Positions 10,785 through 62,596 are shown, counted from the first letter of the stretch. The stretch is DNA of 64,000 bases from Methylococcales bacterium (GCA_037133675.1 JBAXNR010000011.1:1197-65196), one strand, 5' to 3'. Program-made: numbers and translations. The notes: generated by a model not told the origin, from the letters alone.

Positions 10785-10817
10785 ATAGAATGTGCTGAGG
10801 TACGAAGCACATCGTTC
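10785..10817. repeat. Hairpin REP element (ATAGRATGTGCTGA...AGCRCATCGTTC family)
   Basis: Stem GATGTGCT / AGCACATC. A second copy lies at 30842..30874. Confidence 0.7.
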
Positions 10818-10871
10818 AAGCTGATGCGAATTATTGCACTGACACCAATTATAACGAGATGTTATCGTCTT

Positions 10872-26221: not shown

Positions 26222-27883
26222 TTGTCCACACAGTCATCCAGTATTCTCATTGGCTATTTATCTGAAGTTCGTAATAACGGTATGGATGCCAGAATCGCAG
26301 ATGAATATGTCAAAGATACCTCGCGTATCAAAGTAGACAATGAAGAAATTTTGGTCGGTCATATTGGTTCGTATGTCGCTATTCGGCAAGCTGATATTAG
26401 TATTTTAGCCATTACCATTCAAATGTGGGAAAAACACCGTTTTGATAATGCTGATATGCGTAAAACCGATCGCTTTATTGCCTTAGCTCCCGTCGGTGAA
26501 ATTCAAACAGACGGTACTTTTTTGCGTGGTATCACCAATTACCCTACCTCAGGTGCAAAGGTTTATGCGGTTGGCATCACTGAAGTCAGTGCTATTTTCT
26601 CGAAATATCGTAAATATAAATTTTTTATTGGTCAATTATCTTCCCATAGGGGTTATGACCTCAGTCTTGATCCGCAGATTTTCTTTAGTCGGCATTTTGC
26701 GATTGTCGGGCAGTCTGGCTCAGGTAAATCATGGACAGTGACTAATCTGGTTCAACGTGCAGTTAAAACCATGCCCAAAAGCCATATTATTTTGCTGGAT
26801 TTACATGGCGAATATTGCTGGAAAGACACCAAAGGCGTGAGATATTCGGCATTTGATGAGAACATTGTGAATTGTATCGATGCACAAGAAATGGAAATGC
26901 CTTATTGGATGATGAGTTATGCCGAATTGGTAGATTTATTCATTGATCGTGACGACAAAGGTGCGTCCACGCAAATGTCCTTCATGAGTGAAGTATTGAT
27001 GCAGCTTAAGCGCAAAGAATCTAAGCGTATCGGTTTGGTAACGTTTTCTATTGATACGCCTATCTATTTTTCCTTAGCAGAATTGTACATCGCGTTTAAA
27101 ACCGCCAATGAAGAAAAAAAAGCATTTGGCAAAGTGCTAGGTCCTTTATATGGACAGTTTGATAATTTTCTCATTAAAATGCAAAGTCGCTTAAACGACG
27201 TGCGTTATGACTTTTTACTCAGACCCAAAAAACGTAAAAACTCAGAAAGCATGGTAGATTTATTACGCACTTTTGTCGGCTTAGGTGACAAAAAAGCCAA
27301 TGTCACGGTGGTGGATTTAAGTGCAGTGCCGTCCGATATTCGCCCCGCGATTGCAGCGCAAGTGGGTCGTTTAGCTTACGAGTTTAATTATTGGAATCCT
27401 AACCGTCGGGAATTTCCAATCACCCTGATTTGTGAGGAAGCCCATATCTACATTCCTAAAGAAAAAGGCGGGCAATTTGAAGGCTCGAAAAAAATGATGG
27501 AGCGTATTGCCAAAGAAGGTCGAAAATACGGCGTATCTATTGGCGTGGTGAGTCAAAGACCCACCGAGTTATCCGAAACCATGCTGTCACAATGCAGCTC
27601 TTTTATCTGCTTACGCACCACCAGCTTAGAAGATCAAGTGTATATCAGAGGATTGATTCCAGAATCTGAAGGGAATTTAGCGGATGTGTTAAGCTCACTT
27701 GGCAGAGGCGAAGCCCTAGTATTAGGTGAAGCCGTGCCGTTACCAACGCGTGTACAGCTTTACAAACCGAATCCAGAGCCAAAAAGTAATGACGTGGATT
27801 ATGTGACTGGTTGGCGTAAAGGCGTGGCGGATTTGGATGTTGAAGAAATCGTGCAATTATGGCGCACACAAGATAGACGATAA
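26222..27883 (+). CDS. HerA-like (DUF87/FtsK-HerA superfamily) ATPase, with no recognisable nuclease or SIR2 partner
   Basis: 553 aa. An N-terminal HAS-barrel-like region is followed by Walker A IVGQSGSGKSW and Walker B HIILLDLHGEY, then ICEEAHIYIP and GVVSQRPTELS. It has a TTG start with an AGGAG RBS 8 nt upstream. Confidence 0.8.
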   Translation: MSTQSSSILIGYLSEVRNNGMDARIADEYVKDTSRIKVDNEEILVGHIGSYVAIRQADISILAITIQMWEKHRFDNADMRKTDRFIALAPVGEIQTDGTFLRGITNYPTSGAKVYAVGITEVSAIFSKYRKYKFFIGQLSSHRGYDLSLDPQIFFSRHFAIVGQSGSGKSWTVTNLVQRAVKTMPKSHIILLDLHGEYCWKDTKGVRYSAFDENIVNCIDAQEMEMPYWMMSYAELVDLFIDRDDKGASTQMSFMSEVLMQLKRKESKRIGLVTFSIDTPIYFSLAELYIAFKTANEEKKAFGKVLGPLYGQFDNFLIKMQSRLNDVRYDFLLRPKKRKNSESMVDLLRTFVGLGDKKANVTVVDLSAVPSDIRPAIAAQVGRLAYEFNYWNPNRREFPITLICEEAHIYIPKEKGGQFEGSKKMMERIAKEGRKYGVSIGVVSQRPTELSETMLSQCSSFICLRTTSLEDQVYIRGLIPESEGNLADVLSSLGRGEALVLGEAVPLPTRVQLYKPNPEPKSNDVDYVTGWRKGVADLDVEEIVQLWRTQDRR

Positions 27884-52310: not shown

Positions 52311-52331
52311 TTTAGACACAGACAACTCTCT

Positions 52332-55300
52332 ATGAATGTAATACATGGTGCGTGGGTTCCAAAAGACTCACAAGACTTTATTCAATCGGGCGATTTTTAC
52401 CTGTGGGTGGAAAGTGATGACGTTAAACAGCGGGGTAAAATCCCACTACATCCACAGCACCTATCTGAAAAACACTGCTTAGAATTCTTAAAAACTGAGT
52501 TAATGCTCAGCCCCATTAGTGCAGGGCAAGGCAGATTGCTGTCACTGCTTTTACCGACTGTTACAGATAAACCACTGCCATCACCTGAATTACAATCTGT
52601 TGAAGTAGACGAGACCATCATTTTACAAGATTGGCAGGTGTACGCTTATCCGTTATCCAAACCACTAAAAGCCATTAACAATATTCATTTTTTGTGTTGC
52701 TATCAGGTTATTAATAGCCATATCGGCAGTGATTTCTTATTCTGGTATTACTTTAGCCAATCGTTAAAACAACAAATACTTAAAGATCAGTATATTCCGC
52801 TACTATTAAGCCGAAAATCGGGCAAAAATAATGAGTTGTATCGACGGTGGCAAGCGGTGTCCAGCAACTATGAGGGTTTGATACAAACAGCGATTACCCA
52901 AATGCCGCTGGCTTGTAGTCAACACTATCAACCTGAATCCTTGCTACGCCATTTTGCCGAAGTCGTCATTAATGAATTGCTTAGCACCGCTGCACTTGAT
53001 ATGCCGCAAGTGTTTACTAATAAAATTCGGCACGCTTTTTTGGATACCATGCTGTTGCAAAAACAAACAGCAAAGCCGCTTCAAACCTGTCAAAATCTGC
53101 CTGATGACTATAAATACTGGCATCAATGGCAACAAAAACTATTGGGTACTGAGGCAAAAAGCAGCTTACAACTAGGCTTGCAATTGCTTGAAGCTGATCC
53201 AGACAATGTTGATCAATGGCGTTTAGTGTTCTTTTTATCCTCACACCAAGACCCCTCGCTTAAATTAGATTTGGCTGATTTTTGGGCGCACAAAAAACAC
53301 TTTTATAAAATGCTACAGTCGCAGTTCGGCGACACGATTGAACAGCAGATATTAGTTAATTTAGCCCAGGCTGCTAGTATTTATGCAAAATTATGGCAAG
53401 GCATGGAAGATAGCGAACCCAGTCACGTTCTGCTTGATTTGAATGAAGCCTTTGAATTTTTGAAAGAAAGCGCGTGGATATTGGAAGATGCTGGTTTTAA
53501 AATTATTATTCCCGCATGGCTAACGCCTAAAGGTCGTCGCCGTGCAAAAATTCGTTTGCGTAGTTCTGGAAAAAGTAAATCGGTGACCGCCAGTGCAGGT
53601 GGCTATTTTTCGATGAGTACACTGACCGATTACCAATACCAGCTTGCCATCGGTGATGAAGCCTTAAGCCCTGAAGAATGGCAACAGCTAGTCGATAGTA
53701 AAGCCCCATTGATTCATTTTCGTGGTCAATGGATGGAGCTAGACCGCGATAAAATGCAGGAAATGCTGATATTGTTGCAGCAACAAAATGACAATCCACC
53801 AGAGCTGTCAGTTGCTGACTTATTGAAAAAGATCGCCGAACAAGCCGATGAATTTGAACTGGACAGCCAAGACAGTCTGGCACTTATGTTGGCAAAATTA
53901 TCCGATGATAGCCAATTAGAGCCGATAGCCAATCCTGAACAACTCAAGGCAGAACTGCGAGAATATCAAAAACGCGGTGTGGCATGGTTGTGTTATTTGG
54001 AAAGCTTGGGCTTAAACGGTTGTTTAGCCGATGACATGGGGTTAGGGAAAACCATGCAGGTTATTAGCCTGTTAATTTTAGAACGCGAACAAAATCAGCC
54101 CGCGCCAACTTTATTGATTGCTCCTACTTCTGTCATCGGCAACTGGCAAAAAGAAATTGAAAAATTTGCCCCGCATTTAACGACGTTGATTCATCACGGC
54201 AGTGATCGTGAACAGAATGTCGAAGCTTTTAAGCAACTATGTACACAACATGATTTATTGATTACTTCTTACACACTGGCGCGTAAAGACAGCAAATTAC
54301 TGGGCGCGTTACACTGGCGGCGAATTGTTCTCGATGAAGCGCAAAACATCAAAAATCCTAAAGCCGCGCAAACCACCGCTATTTTAAAGCTCAGTGCCGA
54401 TTCCCGTTTAGCGTTGACAGGTACGCCCGTAGAAAACCGTTTAATGGATTTATGGTCGATTTTTAACTTTCTGAATCCAAACTATTTAGGCAAACAAGCG
54501 CAATTTCGCAAAATTTACGAGTTACCCATACAGCGTGATAATGATCCAATTCAATCAACAATCTTGAAAAAACTTATCCAGCCGTTTATTTTACGGCGAT
54601 TAAAAACCGATAAAAATATCATCAAAGACCTACCCGACAAAATCGATAACAAGGTTTATTGTAATCTCAGCAAAGAACAAGCTTCCTTGTATGAAGTCGT
54701 AGTTAAAGACGTGGTCGCGCAATTGGAAGATTCTGAGGGTATTCAACGACAAGGCTTAATGCTTTCCACCTTGATGAAACTCAAACAAATCTGCAATCAT
54801 CCGATGCAGTTTTTACAAGATGGTAGTGCTTTTACACCTGAGCGTTCGCACAAACTGGAACGGTTTAGCGAAATGCTTGAAGAAGCCATGCAGGAAGGCG
54901 ATAGCGTCTTAGTCTTTACCCAATTTACCGAAATAGCCGAACAACTGGAACGCTATCTGGCAAAAGAAAAACGCTACAAAACCCATTATTTACATGGCGG
55001 TACACCGCGAGCAAAACGCGAATTGATGATTGCTGATTTTCAAAACCCAGACTCAGGTGCGGCGGCGTTTATTTTATCGCTCAAAGCGGGCGGTGTCGGT
55101 ATCACCTTAACCCAAGCCAATCATGTGTTTCATTTTGACCGTTGGTGGAATCCAGCCGTTGAAAACCAAGCTACAGACCGCGCTTTTCGTATTGGTCAGA
55201 AAAAAAATGTTTTCGTGCATAAATTCATCACCTTAGGCACCTTAGAAGAACGCATCGACCTTATGATTAGTGACAAGCAAAAAATGGCGGATAGCATCGT

Positions 55301-55391
55301 TGGCAATGATGAAAGTTGGCTAACCAAGCTCGATAATCAAGCATTTAAAGAACTAATCGCCCTCAATAAACGCAGCATTATGGAAAACTGA
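52332..55391 (+). CDS. SNF2-family helicase/translocase with a ~540-aa N-terminal SNF2-associated region (YwqA-like)
   Basis: Contains LADDMGLGKT (I), VLDEAQNIKN (II), LTGTPVENRL (III) and QATDRAFRIGQ (VI). Confidence 0.9.
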   Translation: MNVIHGAWVPKDSQDFIQSGDFYLWVESDDVKQRGKIPLHPQHLSEKHCLEFLKTELMLSPISAGQGRLLSLLLPTVTDKPLPSPELQSVEVDETIILQDWQVYAYPLSKPLKAINNIHFLCCYQVINSHIGSDFLFWYYFSQSLKQQILKDQYIPLLLSRKSGKNNELYRRWQAVSSNYEGLIQTAITQMPLACSQHYQPESLLRHFAEVVINELLSTAALDMPQVFTNKIRHAFLDTMLLQKQTAKPLQTCQNLPDDYKYWHQWQQKLLGTEAKSSLQLGLQLLEADPDNVDQWRLVFFLSSHQDPSLKLDLADFWAHKKHFYKMLQSQFGDTIEQQILVNLAQAASIYAKLWQGMEDSEPSHVLLDLNEAFEFLKESAWILEDAGFKIIIPAWLTPKGRRRAKIRLRSSGKSKSVTASAGGYFSMSTLTDYQYQLAIGDEALSPEEWQQLVDSKAPLIHFRGQWMELDRDKMQEMLILLQQQNDNPPELSVADLLKKIAEQADEFELDSQDSLALMLAKLSDDSQLEPIANPEQLKAELREYQKRGVAWLCYLESLGLNGCLADDMGLGKTMQVISLLILEREQNQPAPTLLIAPTSVIGNWQKEIEKFAPHLTTLIHHGSDREQNVEAFKQLCTQHDLLITSYTLARKDSKLLGALHWRRIVLDEAQNIKNPKAAQTTAILKLSADSRLALTGTPVENRLMDLWSIFNFLNPNYLGKQAQFRKIYELPIQRDNDPIQSTILKKLIQPFILRRLKTDKNIIKDLPDKIDNKVYCNLSKEQASLYEVVVKDVVAQLEDSEGIQRQGLMLSTLMKLKQICNHPMQFLQDGSAFTPERSHKLERFSEMLEEAMQEGDSVLVFTQFTEIAEQLERYLAKEKRYKTHYLHGGTPRAKRELMIADFQNPDSGAAAFILSLKAGGVGITLTQANHVFHFDRWWNPAVENQATDRAFRIGQKKNVFVHKFITLGTLEERIDLMISDKQKMADSIVGNDESWLTKLDNQAFKELIALNKRSIMEN

Positions 55392-55392
55392 C

Positions 55393-56235
55393 ATGAGCAA
55401 ATATGCAAAAACGTGGTGGGGACAACGATTTATTGAAGCTCTGGAAGACTTTACCGACAGAGGACGTTTGCAACGCGGTCGTTCTTATTCCTCCGATAAC
55501 CGTATCAAACAATGGCTACTAAAAGACGGTAAAGTGAACGCCCAAATACGCGGTAACGTCAATCCCTATTTTGGTGTTTATAAGGAACCGACCTATAAAG
55601 TCAGTGTGCAAATGAGCCATTTATCCGAAGCACAATGGAAAAAAATTATTCAAAAACTCAGTCAAAAAGCCAGTTTTATCTCTCGACTATTATTGAATGA
55701 AATTCCAGAAAACATTGAAACTGTGTTTGAAAGTGTCGGCACGCACCTACTGCCCAATGATTACAAAGATTTTAAAGTAAGCTGTGATTGCCCTGATTAT
55801 GCCGTTCCCTGTAAACATATCGCGGGCATTTGCTATCGTCTAGCAGAAATCATGGACAATGATCCTTTTCTATTATTTGAAATGCGCGGCTTAGCTCCTG
55901 AAAAACTATTGCAACAATTAGCCAACACACCATTAGGAAAAATATTAAGTGATGCGAAAAGCAACGCCACCGTTGAATTAACGCCAGTGAATAGTTTTTA
56001 CACGCGCCCGCTACTCGTTACCAATCCCCCACAACACATCAACCTAAATAACTTTTGGCATGGACAACAACCCTTACCCAAAAGCATAGAACCCAGCACA
56101 CCTGCAATAGTCCCCGCTATGCTCATTAAAAAAGGCGGCGATTTCCCCGCATTTTGGCAAAAACAAAGCTCATTTATTGAAGTCATGGAAGATTTTTATT
56201 CCAGAATGCGTAAGAATGCGTTAAAAGAACTGTGA
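55393..56235 (+). CDS. SWIM zinc-finger protein (YwqB-like)
   Basis: CDCPDYAVPCKHIAGI matches the CxCxnCxH SWIM motif. The start is 1 nt after the SNF2 stop. Confidence 0.85.
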   Translation: MSKYAKTWWGQRFIEALEDFTDRGRLQRGRSYSSDNRIKQWLLKDGKVNAQIRGNVNPYFGVYKEPTYKVSVQMSHLSEAQWKKIIQKLSQKASFISRLLLNEIPENIETVFESVGTHLLPNDYKDFKVSCDCPDYAVPCKHIAGICYRLAEIMDNDPFLLFEMRGLAPEKLLQQLANTPLGKILSDAKSNATVELTPVNSFYTRPLLVTNPPQHINLNNFWHGQQPLPKSIEPSTPAIVPAMLIKKGGDFPAFWQKQSSFIEVMEDFYSRMRKNALKEL

Positions 56236-56539
56236 TTTGAAGTAGCAAGTAGCCCAAGTAAACACTATGAATTTTTAGCGTCCAATTACCAGATAAAATT
56301 TAACATTGTATTCAAACTGGTTTAGCGATACGTTATCGACGGTTTAAGAACACACCGAATAATTAATGAAGCAGCGAGTATTGGCAAAAACCTGGACAAC
56401 GTAGAAATGGAGAATAATCACATCATAATACTCTGAGCTTTAATTCCTTTGCCTCCTAATTTTAAGGTCAGGAGTAAAACTAAAGTTTGACGGGGGATTC
56501 TTATGCCAACTCGATAATAACTTTAGTAGAGGATGTGTT

Positions 56540-57832
56540 ATGCAACAGAACCCTATGACGGTGATAACGGCAATCAAGCCCGATTCACTGCAAGCGTTAA
56601 CAGATTATCTGAAGCCAATTGGCAAAGATATAAAGAAAAATGACGTTATTCAATTTTCCAATTATCAGCAACTACATTACTGTAGTTTTTTTATTATTCC
56701 CAGCAATCATCCGTCAGGCAACCTATCTGCTACGCCTGCTTTATTGGTTTTTGAAGCCAATATTGACGGTGAGGTCAGTACTTTTATCAACGACTTAATT
56801 AACGACAATTCGGTATTTATGAATACCGTTTATGGTTATTGTCAGGATTATCAAGATAATGCCCACCTAGGCTCTTATTTGCTTAGTCATGATTACGGCG
56901 CGAATGCCTTTTATGTCGCCCATCCTGGACAAGCTCGCAATGTCATTTATGAGCAACAACAATTGCGCAAAGACATTGAACAGTATGTTGATGCTAACCG
57001 TTCTACGCTGGTGGAACAGCCCGAAAAAATACGCGAGACTATCGCTAATCATTTTTCTTCTACCAGCAAACCCAAACCACAACCCTTTTTAAACAGCAAT
57101 GGCGACATGATTTTCAAAGCCATATTAGCCGTGTTGGTATTAACCTTATTGGGTGGGCTATTTGGTTTCTTGGGGTCAATAGCGCAAACAATAGCAATCG
57201 CTGTGTTAGTGTTGGCTGCTGTCTATGCGATAGTGCTACGTTCACATGAATCTAGCGATAAGCAAGACAGTAGACCGTGGGAATCGCCCAATGTCAGTGC
57301 CGTTCAAGATGTCGAAGATCGTCAGTTACAAAATCATTTGACCAGTGTAATTGAAATTAAATCAGGCTTTTTTCGGTTACTGACTCTAAAAATTGTGCTG
57401 TTTGGTATCAATCTAGTTGCCAAATTGGTGGCGACTAAAGGTGATCTTAGCGGTATCGTCACCATTCATTTTGCCCGTTGGGTCATTCTACCCGATAAAA
57501 AACGTCTATTGTTTATGAGCAATTATGACGGCAGTTGGGAAAATTATCTGGGTGAGTTTATCGATCATGCTAGCCAAGGGCTAACAGCCGTATGGACTAA
57601 CACCCAATTGGGTGAAAATCGCGGCTTTCCAGATACCAAGTGGCTATTTTTACAAGGAGGTTCACGCGATGAACAACGCTTTAAAGCCTTTGCCCGCAAC
57701 AGTCAGCTAGCCGAATTGATTTGGTACAGTGCCTATCCCGATTTATCGGTTAAAAATATTGGCAATAACCGTAGTAGTCACGAAGGGCTATTCTCTTCTT
57801 CCAATCTGGCTGCTTGGCTTAAATGCTTATAA
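56540..57832 (+). CDS. Membrane-anchored protein with DyP-like ferredoxin-fold halves but no heme motifs
   Basis: 430 aa. Two central TM helices (IFKAILAVLVLTLLGGLFGFLG and IAIAVLVLAAVYAIVL) separate two soluble halves. The C-terminal half contains TIHFARWVILPDKKRLLFMSNYDGSWENYLGEFID. It lacks GxxDG and the proximal His motif. Confidence 0.5.
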   Translation: MQQNPMTVITAIKPDSLQALTDYLKPIGKDIKKNDVIQFSNYQQLHYCSFFIIPSNHPSGNLSATPALLVFEANIDGEVSTFINDLINDNSVFMNTVYGYCQDYQDNAHLGSYLLSHDYGANAFYVAHPGQARNVIYEQQQLRKDIEQYVDANRSTLVEQPEKIRETIANHFSSTSKPKPQPFLNSNGDMIFKAILAVLVLTLLGGLFGFLGSIAQTIAIAVLVLAAVYAIVLRSHESSDKQDSRPWESPNVSAVQDVEDRQLQNHLTSVIEIKSGFFRLLTLKIVLFGINLVAKLVATKGDLSGIVTIHFARWVILPDKKRLLFMSNYDGSWENYLGEFIDHASQGLTAVWTNTQLGENRGFPDTKWLFLQGGSRDEQRFKAFARNSQLAELIWYSAYPDLSVKNIGNNRSSHEGLFSSSNLAAWLKCL

Positions 57833-57844
57833 AGGACATTGACA

Positions 57845-59173
57845 ATGACAACCCTCAATTTACAAGACGTACAAGGCATCGTGTTTAGTGGTTATAACAA
57901 ATACATGAGCTGTTCCAGTTATTATTTGCTGCAAATCAATGATGCAAAAAAAACCAAAGCATGGTTAAAAAACCTGCTTGCTCAAGGTCAAATCACTCAC
58001 GGCGAAGATAAAGCCACCGACAGCACAGAAAATCGCTTGAACTTAGCGATTAGCTATTCAGGGCTGGAAAAACTACAACTCGATGAAGCCAGCTTGAACA
58101 GTTTTGAACGCTCTTATCGTGAAGGAATGTACTCGGCACACCGCTCAACGCTATTAGGCGATCAAGATGATGATGCCCCTGAACAATGGCTATGGGGCAA
58201 TAAGACCAATAGCGTGGACGTGTTAGTGCTATTATTTTCTAAGGATGCCAGCATTCATGCTGCCAGTCAGAAACAACACCAAGCCGCTTTTAAAAAGGCA
58301 GGGCTTAGCATCGTTTGGCATTTGGACGCTGGTGAAAAAAGACAAGATGCTGACGGTTTTGCCGTAGAACATTTTGGTTTTGCCGATGGTATTTCTGATC
58401 CGATCGTAGAAGGTTTTCCAACTGCTAGTGGCGCAGCAGCAATAGCAACGGGGGAATTTTTATTAGGTTATCCCAATCAATATGACGGTAAATTAACCCA
58501 AATCCCAATCAGTGAACAGTTTGGTACTAACGGGACTTACCTAGTATTGCGCCAGTTAAAACAAGATGTTGCCGCGTTTTGGACATTCATGGATGAAGAA
58601 GCGGCACGACAAGGTATTACTGCCGATTATCTCGCTGCTAAAATGGTTGGACGTTGGCAAAGTGGCACGTTAGTAGAACCTAATCAAGACACCGATCCTA
58701 AAACTGTCAGTAACGACTTTGATTTCAGCAAAGACCCTGACGGTAAAGGTTGCCCGTTCGGCGCACATATTCGTAGAGCCAATCCAAGAGCAGTTGGACT
58801 AGGCACTAGCGATGCGGAATCACTGACCGTAGCCAATCGTCATCGTCTGTTGCGCCGTGGTCGTAGTTACGGCAAGGCACTGGAAAATCCCAGAAGCGAT
58901 GACGGTCAAGAACGCGGCTTAGTATTCATCTGCCTAAACGCCAACATCGAACGACAATTTGAATTTGTGCAACACACTTGGATAAACAACGTCAAATTTG
59001 CAGGTTTATATGATGAAGACGATCCATTAATTGGTCGTGTCGGCAATTTCACCATCCCAGATGAACCGCTACGGCGACGAGTATGCGGTTTTCAACAATT
59101 CGTTTCTACACGAGGCGGTGGTTATTTCTTTTTACCTAGTCTTAGCGCGTTGGGGATATTGAGCAATTCTTAA
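57845..59173 (+). CDS. Dye-decolorizing (DyP-type) peroxidase
   Basis: Contains LQDVQGIV, HFGFADGISDP (GxxDG), GAHIRRANPR (proximal His region), RRGRSYG and ERQFEFVQHTW. ATG 57845 has better RBS spacing than TTG 57839. Confidence 0.85.
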   Translation: MTTLNLQDVQGIVFSGYNKYMSCSSYYLLQINDAKKTKAWLKNLLAQGQITHGEDKATDSTENRLNLAISYSGLEKLQLDEASLNSFERSYREGMYSAHRSTLLGDQDDDAPEQWLWGNKTNSVDVLVLLFSKDASIHAASQKQHQAAFKKAGLSIVWHLDAGEKRQDADGFAVEHFGFADGISDPIVEGFPTASGAAAIATGEFLLGYPNQYDGKLTQIPISEQFGTNGTYLVLRQLKQDVAAFWTFMDEEAARQGITADYLAAKMVGRWQSGTLVEPNQDTDPKTVSNDFDFSKDPDGKGCPFGAHIRRANPRAVGLGTSDAESLTVANRHRLLRRGRSYGKALENPRSDDGQERGLVFICLNANIERQFEFVQHTWINNVKFAGLYDEDDPLIGRVGNFTIPDEPLRRRVCGFQQFVSTRGGGYFFLPSLSALGILSNS

Positions 59174-59237
59174 GCGTGATCCCAAGTTCTTGAGACAGTT
59201 CAAAAATTGATTATTGGAGTCCAAACTATTTCGCTAT

Positions 59238-59323
59238 GTAGGGTGGGCAAACAGCTCTATCGTTCGCCCACGCTGAATTGACATAAACTGGTGGGCAAGT
59301 AAAAAGACACTTGCCCACCCTAC
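59238..59323. repeat. Composite REP/MITE-like element with nested inverted repeats
   Basis: Outer arms GTAGGGTGGG (59238..59247) and CCCACCCTAC (59314..59323). Inner hairpins are GTGGGCAAAC...CGTTCGCCCAC and GTGGGCAAGT-8 nt-ACTTGCCCAC. Confidence 0.8.
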
Positions 59324-59332
59324 CTAACTTCC

Positions 59333-59491
59333 TTGGCTGTTGTCTTGTCCGCACTCACTACTTTATTAGCCTTTGGCTTGTTGGCGATTAGTTCAACTGA
59401 AATCGTCCACGCATTTGGTTTTACGGTAGCGGTAGGTATACTAACCGCATTGTTAGGTGCGCCGTTGTTGGGTTTAACACGCAAAAGCTAA
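59333..59491 (+). pseudogene. 3'-terminal fragment of an RND/MMPL-type exporter gene
   Basis: The frame reads LAVVLSALTTLLAFGLLAISSTEIVHAFGFTVAVGILTALLGAPLLGLTRKS*. This resembles the last TM helices of MMPL/RND exporters. The upstream body is replaced by the REP element. Confidence 0.45.
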
Positions 59492-59523
59492 TGCTAAATA
59501 CTGGGCGTGATGGGGGGGGATGA

Positions 59524-62160
59524 ATGTTTGATAGCGATCAGTTTAGATACGAAATTGAAGCACTGTTAAAAGATGTGCCGCATGATAAATGTGTAGTGTT
59601 TGCAGTGCGCTCAGCAATGCGGGTGTTGCCACTATTATTAGCGGTTAGGCAAAACAAGGAGGCGTTTTGGTTTTGGAAAGCAGCAGATAGAAATAAGCAT
59701 TTACTGGCAGTATTAAGAGCTTATAGTTGTAGCATTGGATTTGTTTTAACTGGAAAATACGCCTCCGCCAAAGACACTAATGATGCTGCCGCAGCCAAGG
59801 CTAACACTAGCAACAGTGCCTACGCCTATTCCGCCAACTCCGCTGCCAACTCCGCTGCCTACGCCGTCGCCTACGCAGCCGCTTCCGCCTCCGTCTCTGC
59901 CAACACTTACACCTACACCTCCGATGCTGATGTTATACAAATAATGCAGATGGACTTAGCAACACTGAAAAAGATAACATCAAAAGATTTATTACAACAA
60001 CCGTTGTGGTCAAAAAATATGCCTGAAAAATGGCAGCAATGGCTAACTGATTTTAAAGCCGATGCCTTAAGCCTAAATGCGGGCTTTGAGGTATGGTTAG
60101 ATTGGTATGATGACAGATTACAAGGCAAGCCCATAGATGTTGAATTACTTAGACAATGGAATAACATTCCTAAAGAAATTCAAAATCAAGGCGCGGCGGA
60201 AGTTAATGCTTATCTCAAAAATCTGGTACAAAAAACTGCCGTACAACCGCTAAACCGTGTCCGCGCTATTTTCATCGGTTATGGTGAGTCTGGAAAAACC
60301 TCGTTAATCCGTGCCTTACACGATGAACCCGTCACGGAAGGTAAAGAAGCCATGACAGTTGGCATTGATATTCGTGATTGGTCTGTCCCTGATACCAATA
60401 TTAAAGCCCATTTTTGGGATTTTGGCGGTCAGGTGATGGCTCATGCTACCCATCAATTCTTTTTACGCTCTTCCTGTTTGTATGTGCTGGTGCTGAATGC
60501 GCGTAGTGAAATCGGTGGCACAGAACAATCCGAATATTGGCTGGAACACGTTAAAGGTTTCGGTAAAAACGCGCCTGTGATGATCGTCGGTAATAAAGCT
60601 GATCTAGCCAGCATTAATTTGGATATGAGTTATCTTAAAAGCAAATATGCCAATATCGTTGATTTTTATCCGATCTCTTGTACACAAGCAACGACACAAT
60701 TTAAAGCGAAGTTCGACAGTTTCAAACAGGACTTTTGCCAGCAATTACGCACCGTTGGCACTAATCAGATGCAATTCACCAAAGAACAATTTGGTGTATT
60801 AGAAGCATTGCGTCATTACTCGCCAAAAGCCGCTTTTTTATCGCACCAAAAATTTATCGATATTTGCGCTGAACATGGCATTGGCACGGAAGGCGTACAA
60901 AACAGAGACTGGCTACTGGATATTTTGGATAAATTAGGCGTGGTGATTTATTTCCCCCAACTAGCCTGTTTGGACGACTATGTATTAAATCCGCGTTGGT
61001 TGACTCATGGCGTTTATACCCTAATGTACAAACAACAGCCACGCTTAACCCTGCGTGATGCGGTTGCCATTTTGCGTGATAAACCAATTAGTGACGAACA
61101 AGGTAACAAACTGGATTATCCAATGGATAAATGCCGCTTTATCATGGATGCGATGCAGGAGTTCAAATTATGTTATTCGTTGCCGCATGACCGTAACACG
61201 TTAATTATTCCAGAATTATTACCCACCGATCAACCGCGTGATATTCCCTTTGAACAATTCAAACGTGGGGCGTTAGCGTTTGAATTTGTGTTTCGTGGCT
61301 TTTTACCACGTCATATCATGCCTGAACTAATCGTCAATCATCATGAAGAAATTGTGAAAGACGTTGTTTGGCAACGTGGCGTATTGTTAAGAAATAAAAG
61401 CTATCAATCGCTGGCTTTATTAAAAGTGGATTATCATGAGCGGGTATTATCGATTTGGGTAAAAAGCGGCGATGCTAGAGATTATCTCAGCCTGTTAAAT
61501 AATGAAGTATTGCAAATATTGGGGCGGTTGGAGCTGGATTATAAAGAGTGGATTGCGTTGCCATTATCAGCCTGTATCAGTGATAAAACGCTAATCAGAA
61601 GCGAAGAAAAAGCCTCTTATCGGCAGATTTTGGCTTTCGCTAGAAAAGGAGAGCAAGTATATATTTCTGAATCGGGTTTAGAATATGATTTAGGAAAAGT
61701 TTTAGGTGTTATTTTATCCAAGGATGAGCAAGTAAAAGCAGGGATTATTAATGTTTATGGTGATTATGTAGGGGATAAAAAAGTGAGTGATATAAAAATA
61801 GAAATTGGTGATAACGCCAGAATCAATGGCTCAGTCGTTGCCGCTGAAAAAATCGAAAATAGTTTTAATAATTTAAAAGAATCCAAAGCGGATGATGCGG
61901 TGAAAGCGTTGTTAGAACAGTTATTAACTGAAATCAAAACCTTAAATACCAAAGTACCCGCCGCACAAGCGCAAGCAGTAGAAAATATGGCAAAACGTGC
62001 TGATACCTTGGTGACTGAAAGCAAAAGCGCGACACCCGATAAAGAATGGTATCAACTCAGTTTTAAAGGGATTAAAGAAGCGGCTTTAGCCATAGGCGAT
62101 GCAGCTAAACCCGTGCTGGATATTGCTGAAAAACTCAGTCCGTTATTATTAGGCTTGTAA
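59524..62160 (+). CDS. Roc-COR (ROCO-type) small GTPase with uncharacterised N- and C-terminal domains
   Basis: 878 aa with G1 GYGESGKTS, G3 WDFGGQ and G4 GNKAD. A COR-like region follows (LDILDKLGVVIYFP...LNPRWLTHGVYTLM...IIPELLP). The N-terminal 240 aa include an A/S/N/Y low-complexity block. The C-terminal ~170 aa form a beta-rich then helical tail. No LRR, WD40 or TPR is present. Confidence 0.75.
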   Translation: MFDSDQFRYEIEALLKDVPHDKCVVFAVRSAMRVLPLLLAVRQNKEAFWFWKAADRNKHLLAVLRAYSCSIGFVLTGKYASAKDTNDAAAAKANTSNSAYAYSANSAANSAAYAVAYAAASASVSANTYTYTSDADVIQIMQMDLATLKKITSKDLLQQPLWSKNMPEKWQQWLTDFKADALSLNAGFEVWLDWYDDRLQGKPIDVELLRQWNNIPKEIQNQGAAEVNAYLKNLVQKTAVQPLNRVRAIFIGYGESGKTSLIRALHDEPVTEGKEAMTVGIDIRDWSVPDTNIKAHFWDFGGQVMAHATHQFFLRSSCLYVLVLNARSEIGGTEQSEYWLEHVKGFGKNAPVMIVGNKADLASINLDMSYLKSKYANIVDFYPISCTQATTQFKAKFDSFKQDFCQQLRTVGTNQMQFTKEQFGVLEALRHYSPKAAFLSHQKFIDICAEHGIGTEGVQNRDWLLDILDKLGVVIYFPQLACLDDYVLNPRWLTHGVYTLMYKQQPRLTLRDAVAILRDKPISDEQGNKLDYPMDKCRFIMDAMQEFKLCYSLPHDRNTLIIPELLPTDQPRDIPFEQFKRGALAFEFVFRGFLPRHIMPELIVNHHEEIVKDVVWQRGVLLRNKSYQSLALLKVDYHERVLSIWVKSGDARDYLSLLNNEVLQILGRLELDYKEWIALPLSACISDKTLIRSEEKASYRQILAFARKGEQVYISESGLEYDLGKVLGVILSKDEQVKAGIINVYGDYVGDKKVSDIKIEIGDNARINGSVVAAEKIENSFNNLKESKADDAVKALLEQLLTEIKTLNTKVPAAQAQAVENMAKRADTLVTESKSATPDKEWYQLSFKGIKEAALAIGDAAKPVLDIAEKLSPLLLGL

Positions 62161-62192
62161 ACTTGCTGTCTGTATTTAATTGAGGAGTGACT

Positions 62193-62327
62193 ATGGATAT
62201 TGAAACTGTATTTAAATTACTGGCTATTATACTTTGGCCATTCTTACTGGTATTTTTATACTATCTACTTGACAGAAAAGGTTTTAAAAAACAACTGGAA
62301 AAGTTTAAAAAAGAGGGTTGGTCTTAA
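62193..62327 (+). CDS. 44-aa single-TM peptide downstream of the Roc-COR gene (not in the ORF track)
   Basis: A GAGGAG RBS lies 6 nt before ATG 62193. The product is MDIETVFKLLAIILWPFLLVFLYYLLDRKGFKKQLEKFKKEGWS*, a hydrophobic helix followed by a Lys-rich tail. It starts 32 nt after the GTPase stop. Confidence 0.45.
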   Translation: MDIETVFKLLAIILWPFLLVFLYYLLDRKGFKKQLEKFKKEGWS

Positions 62328-62596
62328 ATGAACCTTTAAACGCATCAAGCGGATTTGTCAGATGCCAAAGCCGCTTGGTGGGTTTGTAAGCACATCACTT
62401 TTTCATATCGAGCTGCAACACATTTTGACAAGCACTATTTGTCGGAAACACCTATTTTTTCTCACGCCTAAACAGGCTTATTCCGACCTACATGGCTAGC
62501 AAAATAATCGACGTATTATCCCGAATAAACACGGCTACATTTTTCATACAGTAAATGGGTTAAAATGCTCCTCATTTTTTCAGCCATTATTTCCTT

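Follow-up and report, generated by a model that had tools for sequence, protein, structure and literature searches.

The gene at positions 59524..62160 of the window (the whole stretch of 64,000 nucleotides that was analyzed, from a Methylococcales bacterium) encodes an 878-aa protein that probably acts, on the balance of the comparisons made here, as a stand-alone, single-polypeptide switch of the ROCO type and as an NLR-like conflict sensor; we infer the immune role, and the family to which the protein belongs has been catalogued before as a predicted immune sensor. Its first 245 residues form an undescribed, widespread and fast-evolving domain (the N-module), which is a new finding. The conflict-sensor reading was preferred because of the published class of related proteins, the swaps of modules among homologues, the partners of the N-module, the divergence between alleles and the accessory status of the gene.

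The Roc-COR gene and its switch core

The protein consists of the N-module, a Roc GTPase domain, COR-A, COR-B, a linker predicted to be disordered and a C-terminal helical bundle, in that order. The corresponding features are as follows.

59524..62160, + strand: Roc-COR (ROCO, or "AP-GTPase+COR") gene, 878 aa, supported by the ORF, Pfam domains and 393 retrieved homologues
59524..60258, + strand: N-module, aa 1-245, an all-helical domain (AF2 pLDDT 80.7, pTM 0.79)
59758..60049, + strand: hypervariable Ala/Ser/Asn/Tyr-rich insert with flanking helices, about aa 79-176, defined by the BLASTN break against the sister locus L001
60268..60603, + strand: Roc GTPase domain (Pfam envelope aa 249-360, E 1.5e-21)
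60796..61665, + strand: COR-A (aa 425-566) and COR-B (aa 584-714) (Pfam E 1.1e-21 and 1.4e-13)
61753..61818, + strand: Gly/Asn/Asp-rich variable linker, aa 744-765, predicted disordered (AF2 pLDDT <50)
61834..62151, + strand: C-terminal five-helix bundle, aa 771-876 (AF2 pLDDT >90)

The Roc core and COR region of the original prediction were both recovered by Pfam, and the GTPase motifs are intact (G1 GYGESGKTS at aa 252-260, G3 WDFGGQ at 298-303 and G4 NKAD at 357-360). Among 32 homologues compared, most G1, G3 and G4 positions and R327 were invariant, and K358 was nearly so. From alignment and the literature, R327 would correspond to R543, the catalytic arginine of CtRoco (Chlorobium tepidum). 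COR-A and COR-B are the putative dimerization and relay domains, and a GTP cycle is predicted from the conservation of the motifs and of R327. By sequence, the protein is a bacterial relative of the Parkinson's-linked GTPase switch LRRK2.

The Pfam scan also agreed with the claim that the usual sensors are lacking; neither LRR nor WD40 nor TPR matched the 878-aa protein, and LRR was absent even at E<=10. The stretches of about 240 aa before the GTPase and about 170 aa after COR that had been pointed out were found as about 245 aa before Roc and about 165 aa after COR-B, without a match in Pfam, NCBIfam, PHROG or PADLOC. With permissive settings, searches of the N- and C-terminal pieces against Pfam and PHROG gave nothing but noise. 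Both regions were kept in homologues down to about 40% identity.

Location within a strain-variable hotspot

When the sister contigs L089 and L090 were compared with the window by BLASTN, homology stopped at 59253 and returned at 62182, with other cargo in between. In this Methylococcales bacterium, the Roc-COR gene is carried as accessory cargo at a chromosomal hotspot that varies between strains, in line with the earlier view that the segment had been inserted. Two haplotypes of the hotspot were seen in metagenomes, the alternative one carrying DUF6232, an XRE regulator and DUF4160/DUF2442 (TA-like genes).

59254..62181, no strand: strain-variable cargo of the DyP-to-peptide hotspot, containing a REP fragment, an MMPL remnant and Roc-COR (BLASTN, L089/L090)
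59235..59326, no strand: REP-like nested palindrome at the left cargo junction (inverted repeats I1 and I2)
59333..59491, + strand: 52-codon remnant from the 3' end of an MMPL/RND-HAE3 exporter gene, situated within the cargo (Pfam, NCBIfam)

The elements proposed to bound the segment were found, with changed roles. The nested palindromes of the supposed composite REP/MITE are present upstream (arms 59235-59250/59311-59326 and 59290-59300/59309-59319), but their MITE nature is unproven, the palindrome being single-copy in the 64-kb window; elsewhere it recurred only in sister strains, at the corresponding position, apart from one match in L062, and L089 carries two copies of a simple hairpin version at that locus. 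The decapitated exporter gene is likewise real, but its remnant lies inside the cargo and does not bound it. It covers the last TM helices of MMPL/HAE3, with in-frame stop codons upstream, and its matches are weak (Pfam MMPL, E 5.5e-4, 250-290 of 333; NCBIfam HAE3, E 1.5e-4, 682-722 of 733). It is shared with L001 only and does not travel with Roc-COR at other loci. No tRNA and no Rfam family were detected at the locus, and promoter and terminator scans stayed at background level.

The downstream 44-aa peptide

62193..62327, + strand: gene of a 44-aa single-TM small protein, a backbone gene outside the Roc-COR unit

It had been suggested that the Roc-COR protein and this peptide form a two-gene abortive-infection module, in which Roc-COR senses infection and releases or activates a membrane-disrupting peptide. 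The physical description of the unannotated ORF was accurate. A gap of 32 nt that contains no terminator-like site separates it from the Roc-COR stop, a strong GAGGAG Shine-Dalgarno sequence (62181-62186) precedes it, and it encodes one hydrophobic TM helix followed by a basic, Lys-rich tail. Seven of its nine differences from L001 were synonymous third-position changes (P about 0.008), indicating that the ORF is a real gene under purifying selection. All of this would suit such a module, but the comparison among loci does not. Downstream of 80 family loci, tblastn with the peptide sequence and a scan for hydrophobic small ORFs of any kind recovered only the near-identical L001, which belongs to the same species-level lineage. 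About 70 other family loci lack the peptide, and no comparable small TM ORF is conserved in its place. In L089, L090, L096 and L097 the peptide occupies the same site and Roc-COR is absent, the homology of sister strains resuming exactly at the peptide Shine-Dalgarno sequence (62182). The peptide homologues formed six clusters, and the more distant ones (64-81% identity) adjoin DUF805, LpxB/rhodanese or ADH genes, never Roc-COR. The two-gene module is already contradicted by these comparative data and is highly improbable; judged from sequence comparison, the peptide is an unrelated backbone gene that is independent of Roc-COR. The account of a GTPase paired with a membrane peptide was wrong and has to be corrected: adjacency and a good ribosome binding site in one genome failed the comparison with sister strains.

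The N-module family

The AF2 model of the N-module consisted of helices throughout and contained no solenoid. There was no match in Pfam or to PDB sequences, a PDB profile search returned noise or designed helical bundles, and Foldseek against PDB and BFVD retrieved no relative, the best E values being 4.7 and 2.2. With a cutoff of E<=1e-3, the family counted 4,065 representative clusters, formed at 50% identity. Its members occur as stand-alone proteins, as tandem arrays of two to three copies, or fused to TIR, caspase, NACHT or Roc-COR. Fusions with TIR were found in P0128, P0207, P0231 and P0253; P0169 combines a caspase, the N-module and Roc-COR, and in P0134 the module is fused to Metallophos, NACHT and pentapeptide repeats. 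One stand-alone gene lies in housekeeping surroundings (rpoZ-spoT-recG). The slot that the N-module fills here is the LRR slot in CtRoco, and P0101, the sole LRR-bearing variant, has an LRR in place of the N-module.

The N-module was also the region in which the alleles differed. The BLASTN alignment between the window and L001, which is about 95% identical, broke exactly at 59758..60049. Amino acid identity was 17-43% in about aa 79-176 and 17-70% for the N-module as a whole, compared with 97-100% for aa 300-878; within the variable part, aa 85-113 had an AF2 pLDDT <50. Between the window and L001, the N-module had a dN/dS ratio of 0.43, with 1.26 in codons 41-84, compared with 0.06 in Roc, and the Roc, COR and tail regions were under strong purifying selection. 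The dS values formed a mosaic: recombination has exchanged the 5' 1.2 kb. Because dS was also high in the N-terminal part, the high divergence there came largely from recombination with a divergent allele and is not demonstrably point-wise positive selection. Diversification of the DGR type was considered and rejected; the window contains no template-like repeat of the variable region, and no reverse transcriptase was found among the window proteins scanned.

We tentatively propose that the N-module may serve NLR-like immunity in bacteria as a sensor domain not described so far, carrying a hypervariable Ala/Tyr/Asn-rich surface that recombination reshuffles from strain to strain. Such a sensor would be common to at least two NTPase switches (Roc-COR and NACHT) and to TIR proteins without a switch, would also stand beside a caspase in a Roc-COR protein, and could be arrayed in tandem.

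The linker and the C-terminal tail

The stretch after COR that had been called beta-rich turned out to be mostly (aa 744-765) predicted disordered and not beta in the AF2 model, and its length and sequence were highly variable across the family. The helical tail described behind it was confirmed as a five-helix bundle. A local HMM built for this tail was found in 104 of the 132 family proteins. A TIR domain takes the place of the tail in P0077 and P0087, and the caspase-bearing P0169 retains a short helical tail without a match to the HMM. Foldseek retrieved generic helical bundles only (talin rod, THATCH), all at E >0.2, a PDB profile search gave noise or designed helical bundles, and no enzymatic or pore-forming signature was recognizable. 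The bundle was named "DUF4404" by Kaur et al. (2021). PF14357 (DUF4404) was not matched by any of 28 tails in an hmmscan at E<=1 and was also missing from the Pfam lists of 120 homologues; the published label presumably came from profile-profile methods. Since P0169 and CtRoco also carry tails, this part of the protein may have a constant role in regulation or oligomerization and not be the effector.

Neighbours, paralogues and defence context

When 3,783 ORFs of the family loci were clustered all against all, no recurrent partner gene emerged; the only recurrent ORF "clusters" were shadow ORFs inside the Roc-COR gene itself. No PADLOC model matched the Roc-COR protein, the peptide or the neighbours, and no Avs or NACHT model was matched; the only hit was an SNF2 protein matching helicase models of the ZorD/DpdE type. 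Among 148 neighbour ORFs of homologues, a few PIN, transposase and R-M matches were scattered between housekeeping genes. The expected association with defence islands was not seen as a consistent signal in this mixture of housekeeping and accessory genes, which was counted without a background control.

Several genomes carry the family repeatedly, with two to six loci each in Methylovulum psychrotolerans, Burkholderiaceae ant_bin.273, Anammoxibacter OFTM214 and Thiotrichales BB31, and four Roc-COR ORFs lie within 20 kb at L071. Carriers include cable bacteria, Beggiatoa, Thiomargarita and Thiothrix. Frameshifted or pseudogenized copies of the family genes also occur. A second N-module gene was not found in the window, and adjacent N-module matches at other loci were frameshifted fragments of the same gene.

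Comparison with known systems

A role of Roc-COR ("AP-GTPase") proteins as conflict-system switches has been predicted (PMC8195603), and the original suggestion of such a switch fits this prediction and is reasonable. Kaur et al. (2021; eLife 10:e70394, Fig. 6D and source data) described predicted prokaryotic counter-invader systems centred on AP-GTPase(Roc)-COR, with an N-terminal sensor, at least 24 alternative C-terminal effector domains and several paralogues per genome in filamentous bacteria. Three homologues are in their table as "AP-GTPase+COR+DUF4404", namely P0030 (ASF48224.1/CEK71_20365, 57% identity), P0051 (PPD50460.1/CTY16_01515) and P0053 (PPD50180.1/CTY13_02150). The architecture had thus been recorded before and is not, as once thought, an undescribed combination of domains; CtRoco, too, aligns through part of the tail. 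The family studied here shares with this class the Roc and COR core, the variable C-terminal slot (TIR in P0077 and P0087), the many paralogues per genome with enrichment in filamentous or multicellular-type bacteria, and a rapidly evolving N-terminal region, although the sensor here is not an LRR. The published focus was on N-terminal LRR sensors, whereas the helical module of about 240 aa found here is unannotated in their table. The class itself is a computational prediction.

CtRoco (PDB 3DPU, 6HLU, 8R4B) aligned over residues 420-1036 to aa 212-831 (E 4e-54), and Methanosarcina barkeri Roco2 (MbRoco2, 4WNR) matched at E 2e-63. The homology extends from the linker before Roc through COR-B into part of the tail, where the alignment is of low confidence, and the position of the catalytic arginine is conserved. 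CtRoco has an N-terminal LRR region of about 410 aa where the N-module stands here, and it ends in about 150 flexible, unresolved residues (PMC11052575). According to a review from 2019, all prokaryotic Rocos then identified were of the LRR-RocCOR type (PMC6337361); the 878-aa protein has no N-terminal LRR and falls outside this group 1.

The gasdermin-activating protease of Runella is a Roc-COR-CHAT protein, whose CHAT domain cleaves the Runella gasdermin that executes cell death (Johnson et al.); therefore, Roc-COR occurs in prokaryotic cell-death proteins. That system has a CHAT protease and a gasdermin gene, whereas the present locus has no protease, gasdermin or partner gene. STAND/NLR-like sensors (Avs, bNACHT), which are single-protein defence systems, are similar in their three-part logic (variable sensor, NTPase switch, output domain), and the N-module itself accompanies NACHT in P0134, but they use a STAND ATPase and not a Ras-like GTPase with COR.

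Proposed mechanism and alternative explanations

If the protein is a conflict sensor, the helical N-module of about 240 aa, in the position of the CtRoco LRR, would be the recognition domain, with the Ala/Tyr/Asn-rich insert and its neighbouring helices as the variable surface. Engagement of a ligand would shift the GTPase cycle of Roc-COR and, by analogy with CtRoco, turn a closed dimer (nucleotide-free or with GDP bound) into an open monomer loaded with GTP; such GTP-driven opening from dimer to monomer is established for CtRoco (PMC11052575). The shift would free or re-orient the five-helix bundle, tethered by the disordered Gly/Asn-rich linker, and the bundle as output might self-associate or engage a cellular target, leading to cell arrest. 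The assignment of sensing and output to the two ends, like the role of the tail, is inferred.

PIN toxins and transposases among the neighbours of homologues are consistent with a conflict sensor. Weighing against it are the lack of a PADLOC model match, of a conserved partner and of a consistent defence-island signal (again without a background control), the stand-alone N-module protein in housekeeping surroundings, a C-terminal tail that has no enzymatic or pore-forming signature and, being present in P0169 and CtRoco, is perhaps not an effector, and an N-terminal divergence that is largely due to recombination. The same PADLOC and neighbourhood results, the missing effector enzyme, the strong purifying selection on Roc, COR and tail, and the stand-alone N-module gene among rpoZ-spoT-recG would fit a non-immune signalling GTPase whose hotspot location is incidental. 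Candidate roles would be organization of envelope or cytoskeleton, development, or sensing of GTP levels in methanotrophs and filamentous bacteria, and no physiological role has been established for the Roco proteins of prokaryotes (PMC6337361). We regard this explanation, for the class of GTPase and for these roles alike, as rather unlikely. Presence and absence of the gene differ between near-identical strains, paralogues are multiple and some copies are pseudogenized, the N-module differs strongly between alleles, and TIR, caspase and NACHT in close homologues or N-module carriers are hallmarks of conflict systems, not of core signalling.

The N-module could instead be a homotypic adaptor that recruits N-module effectors encoded elsewhere, with sensing by the tail or by Roc-COR. 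Its distribution at the N-termini of NTPases, in TIR and caspase fusions and as stand-alone proteins mirrors that of the effector-associated domains (EADs) of Kaur et al. Partners of EADs are normally encoded side by side (Kaur et al., 2021), but only one N-module gene is present in the window, so that EAD-like pairing in cis was rejected, and the adjacent matches elsewhere are fragments. A size of about 240 aa and tandem arrays fit a repeat-type sensor better, the domain that replaces the N-module in P0101 is a sensor domain (LRR), and hypervariability at the strain level would break homotypic pairing. An adaptor of this kind is improbable, and a conflict sensor with the N-module at its recognition end remains the preferred reading.

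Significance

Bacterial Rocos serve as structural stand-ins for LRRK2, while their own physiological role is unknown (PMC6337361), and the locus described here bears on their function. The N-module family, with at least 4,000 clusters and members beside TIR, caspase and NACHT, merits entry in domain databases and defence-system catalogues. Natural presence/absence haplotypes of a compact, single-gene, LRR-less Roco are available, and the two natural N-module alleles on an otherwise identical Roc-COR-tail chassis come close to an allele-swap experiment on N-terminal specificity. If the sensor reading is true, the N-module would be the helical equivalent of LRRs in function, and the LRR-less Roco family would offer a tractable one-gene model of how Roc-COR couples recognition to output.

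Domain organization and class of the Roc-COR protein

The gene in question occupies the following position:
59524..62160, + strand, Roc-COR ORF, 878 aa

Pfam placed Roc at aa 249-360, COR-A at 425-566 and COR-B at 584-714, all well above threshold, and detected no LRR, WD40 or TPR in the 878-aa protein. The Roc motifs G1 (GYGESGKTS), G3 (DFGGQ) and G4 (NKAD) were intact; across 32 aligned full-length homologues, most positions were invariant and K358 nearly so. About 245 residues N-terminal to Roc and about 165 C-terminal to COR-B were unassigned, without any match in Pfam, NCBIfam, PHROGs or PADLOC, permissive thresholds included. The original prediction of a Roc GTPase core with COR, lacking LRR, WD40 and TPR and flanked by unmatched stretches, was thus accurate.

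The first search yielded 393 detectable homologues, many of them full-length with 40-82% identity. Most hosts were Methylococcales, and further members occurred in Gallionella, Massilia/Janthinobacterium, Nitrosomonas, anammox bacteria, cable bacteria (Electrothrix, Electronema), Beggiatoa, Thiomargarita and Thiothrix, with multiple paralogues in several genomes. The N- and C-terminal regions were both conserved family-wide, and variable linkers of low complexity lay between them and the core. Two Desulfobulbaceae/Electronema loci (L071:2078-19202 and L070) carried up to four Roc-COR paralogues in about 20 kb, some with a gene for an LRR protein immediately after them; these clusters represent local ROCO gene expansion in cable-bacteria genomes. 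At L014, L016, L030, L046, L048, L065-L067 and L075, frameshifts or stop codons split family members into pieces carrying either Roc-COR or the N-terminal module (aa 1-245, hereafter N-module). Either these genes are apparent pseudogenes or MAG assembly errors produced the splits; the pattern would fit rapid family turnover.

A sequence search of the PDB revealed strong homology to both model Rocos of prokaryotes, MbRoco2 (4WNR, E 2e-63) and CtRoco (8R4B, E 4e-54). The alignment with CtRoco started at query aa 212 in the pre-Roc linker, passed COR-B and ended at query aa 831, inside the post-COR tail; therefore, such a tail is not unique to the window protein, whose real divergence lies at the N-terminus.

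A class with a Roc and COR core, a rapidly evolving N-terminal LRR and a C-terminal slot that takes any of 24 or more alternative domains (TIR, DrHyd, caspase, trypsin, FGS, GT4 and EADs among them) has been described, with large numbers of paralogues in single genomes of filamentous bacteria (Kaur et al., 2021; PMC8195603). The Figure 6 source data of that study list CEK71_20365, CTY16_01515 and CTY13_02150 as 'AP-GTPase+COR+DUF4404', and these are homologues of the window protein (our P0030, P0051 and P0053, respectively). The family was therefore already catalogued with its C-terminal tail labelled, and the view that the domain combination was undescribed did not hold; the N-terminal 240 aa carry no annotation in that table. 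DUF4404 was not recovered by plain hmmscan in 28 tails, so the label is taken here as provisional. The window gene is a new member of this catalogued class of predicted Roc-COR 'counter-invader' proteins. The Runella gasdermin protease is a Roc-COR-CHAT protein, so Roc-COR also occurs in a bacterial cell-death system.

The 44-aa peptide gene

A small ORF with its own Shine-Dalgarno was found, as predicted, 32 nt past the Roc-COR stop codon:
62193..62327, + strand, 44-aa peptide ORF, GAGGAG Shine-Dalgarno 6 nt before the start codon

Between the window and L001, the locus of a strain about 95% identical, this ORF differed by nine substitutions, seven of them synonymous at third positions and two conservative (I to V, L to F), a pattern with a binomial probability of about 0.008. 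Six homologue clusters (64-98% identity, mostly exactly 44 aa) were found, and public gene callers called the ORF independently. It is a real gene. An imperfect hairpin (CAAGCGG...CCGCTTG) that might be the terminator of the peptide gene in the window strain loses its second arm through a 73-bp indel relative to L001 (window 62362-62434), directly 3' of the ORF.

The peptide and Roc-COR are not partners. Of 80 Roc-COR family loci, only L001 had the peptide, and no analogous small hydrophobic ORF recurred downstream of Roc-COR at the others. Four sister-strain contigs (L089, L090, L096 and L097) kept the backbone of a 430-aa protein gene and a DyP gene, then the peptide, TusA and CDF transporter genes, with the Roc-COR gene absent. 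More distant peptide homologues adjoined DUF805, LpxB/rhodanese or ADH genes. The proposed two-gene abortive-infection module of Roc-COR and peptide therefore fails by the refuting condition that the original prediction set for itself.

A strain-variable hotspot

The slot between the DyP and peptide genes is a hotspot whose cargo differs between strains:
59235-59326, nested palindromes (REP-like), upstream of Roc-COR
59254-62181, strain-variable cargo: part of the REP-like hairpin, the exporter remnant and Roc-COR

BLASTN put the left cargo junction at window 59253 and the right one at 62182, exactly at the Shine-Dalgarno of the peptide gene. The segment is thus strain-variable and inserted, as proposed, with borders corrected to 59254-62181 and the exporter remnant inside the cargo rather than bounding it. 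The boundary 'MITE' is unproven because the window holds just one copy of the palindrome. The alternative haplotype had two copies of a simple hairpin form, and the composite hairpin of the window looks like one broken at the recombination junction. The exporter remnant, a 52-codon ORF after the palindromes with a weak match to the extreme C-terminus of MMPL/HAE3 exporters, was common to the window and L001 only and was presumably brought along from the donor context.

In the four sister-strain contigs the slot held DUF6232, an XRE-type HTH and a DUF4160/DUF2442 pair. Both haplotypes were found in environmental assemblies. The alternative cargo (L089:3851-6125, also in L090, L096 and L097) was arranged as DUF6232, 59-aa ORF, XRE-type HTH, 73-aa ORF and the toxin-antitoxin-like DUF4160/DUF2442 pair, flanked and interrupted by REP-like hairpins. 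A short repeat (~40-50 bp) at window 10785-10834 and 30833-30874 matches, at 85-88% identity, a stretch that closely follows the CDF transporter gene in both L001 and L089. It is probably a dispersed element of REP type that differs from the palindrome at the hotspot.

The surrounding chromosome was ordinary (SecA, FeoB, Kup, P-type ATPase). The backbone pair at window 56540-59173, the 430-aa protein (central hydrophobic segment, no Pfam match) and, after 7 nt, a divergent DyP-type peroxidase (444 aa), showed synteny in every related contig (L001, L089, L095, L096). A second strain-variable cargo slot lies 3 kb upstream of the hotspot, where the near-identical relatives L001 and L089 have about 92 bp instead:
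52311-56262, second strain-specific insert, absent from L001 and L089
52332..55391, SNF2-family helicase with DUF3670 (PADLOC ZorD/DpdE-like helicase models, E 5e-132)
55393..56235, SWIM zinc-finger protein, second gene of the insert

An ORF for a HerA-like (DUF87) ATPase of 553 aa was located at window 26222-27883; HerA-type ATPases are found in several defence systems and also in DNA repair.

Allele divergence within the Roc-COR gene

The window and L001 Roc-COR proteins were 97-100% identical over residues 300-878 and 17-70% identical over residues 1-180.

Table. Nei-Gojobori divergence by segment, window versus L001
Codons 1-180: dS about 0.9 overall, saturated in 136-180; dN/dS 0.43 (1.26 for codons 41-84)
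Codons 181-420: dS about 0.55-0.6; dN/dS 0.06-0.07
Codons 421-714: dS 0.04; dN/dS 0.19
Codons 715-878: dS 0; dN/dS not defined

The gene is a mosaic in which the 5' ~1.2 kb was swapped with a divergent allele; in addition, constraint is by far the weakest in the N-module. The window contained no template repeat of the DGR type.

The N-module

AlphaFold2 with a 31-sequence alignment gave a confident all-helical domain (pLDDT 80.7, pTM 0.79) with a disordered insert at residues 85-113. Foldseek found no fold match in PDB (best E 4.7) or BFVD (best E 2.2). The conserved positions were nearly all hydrophobic or aromatic, which argues for a putative binding or scaffold domain, not an enzyme. In the close homologue P0101, an LRR replaces the N-module while Roc-COR and the bundle of the tail are kept; therefore, the N-module occupies a slot that a classical sensor can also fill. 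An exhaustive profile search recovered 4,065 representative clusters (E ≤ 1e-3).

Table. N-module architectures read from mapped top hits of the profile search
N-terminal to Roc-COR: commonest case
Stand-alone, complete 252-aa gene amid rpoZ-spoT-recG: P0130
Tandem arrays, two or three copies: 37 of 138 top hits mapped
Caspase + N-module + Roc-COR: P0169
Metallophos + two N-modules + NACHT + pentapeptide repeats: P0134
One to three N-modules + TIR, no NTPase: P0128, P0207, P0231, P0253

These partner domains and tandem arrays fit a recognition module of conflict systems. The rival explanation of an EAD-like adaptor was weakened, since no second N-module gene was found in cis and adjacent N-module matches at other loci were frameshifted pieces of the same gene. 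In P0201, P0240 and P0259, one to three N-modules preceded about 300-370 aa of unannotated, helical-looking sequence ending in Gly/Ala-rich, glycine-zipper-like hydrophobic stretches; these extensions may be membrane-active output domains on the same N-module.

The C-terminal tail

The AlphaFold2 model of aa 700-878 began with the last part of COR-B, followed by a disordered linker rich in Gly and Asn (744-765) and then a bundle of five helices (771-876, pLDDT above 90), for which Foldseek returned only generic bundles (talin rod, THATCH) without a significant E-value. The close homologues P0077 and P0087 kept the N-module and Roc-COR with a C-terminal TIR in place of the bundle; the tail therefore shares a slot with a classical effector. 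A tail HMM matched 104 of the 132 family proteins having at least 100 aa after COR-B, and the caspase-bearing P0169 retained a short helical tail that the HMM did not match. Therefore, instead of being a 'toxin', the tail may be a constant element for output or oligomerisation; its role is the weakest link of the proposed mechanism. At L045:4067-6145, a ~690-aa ORF with no detectable Roc-COR matched the tail HMM; a PIN/antitoxin pair and a Roc-COR gene of the family lie upstream of it. The helical tail may therefore also occur outside ROCO proteins.

Neighbourhood and proposed role

No gene was conserved beside the family. Among the two nearest ORFs per side at about 40 loci (148 ORFs), PIN (5) and transposases (4) were the commonest Pfam families, PADLOC gave isolated R-M, SoFic and PDC matches, and many neighbours were housekeeping genes. 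The setting has an accessory-region flavour; because the counts have no background control, they are not evidence of defence-island enrichment.

The sequence features noted in the original prediction are real, its peptide story is refuted and its insertion story is borne out, although the borders had to be corrected. The present analysis adds predicted structural models for both flanking modules and identifies the N-module as a large domain, so far unannotated, that is both promiscuous and hypervariable. The Roc-COR protein would act as a single-gene, NLR-like sensor-switch-output protein, a reading to which we give slightly better than even chances; its main rival, a non-immune signalling role, seems rather unlikely. 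Allele shuffling at the sensor end of a fixed switch-and-output chassis is as expected of an immune receptor, though not proof of one, and the two alleles and two haplotypes provide a natural system that allows the N-module to be tested.
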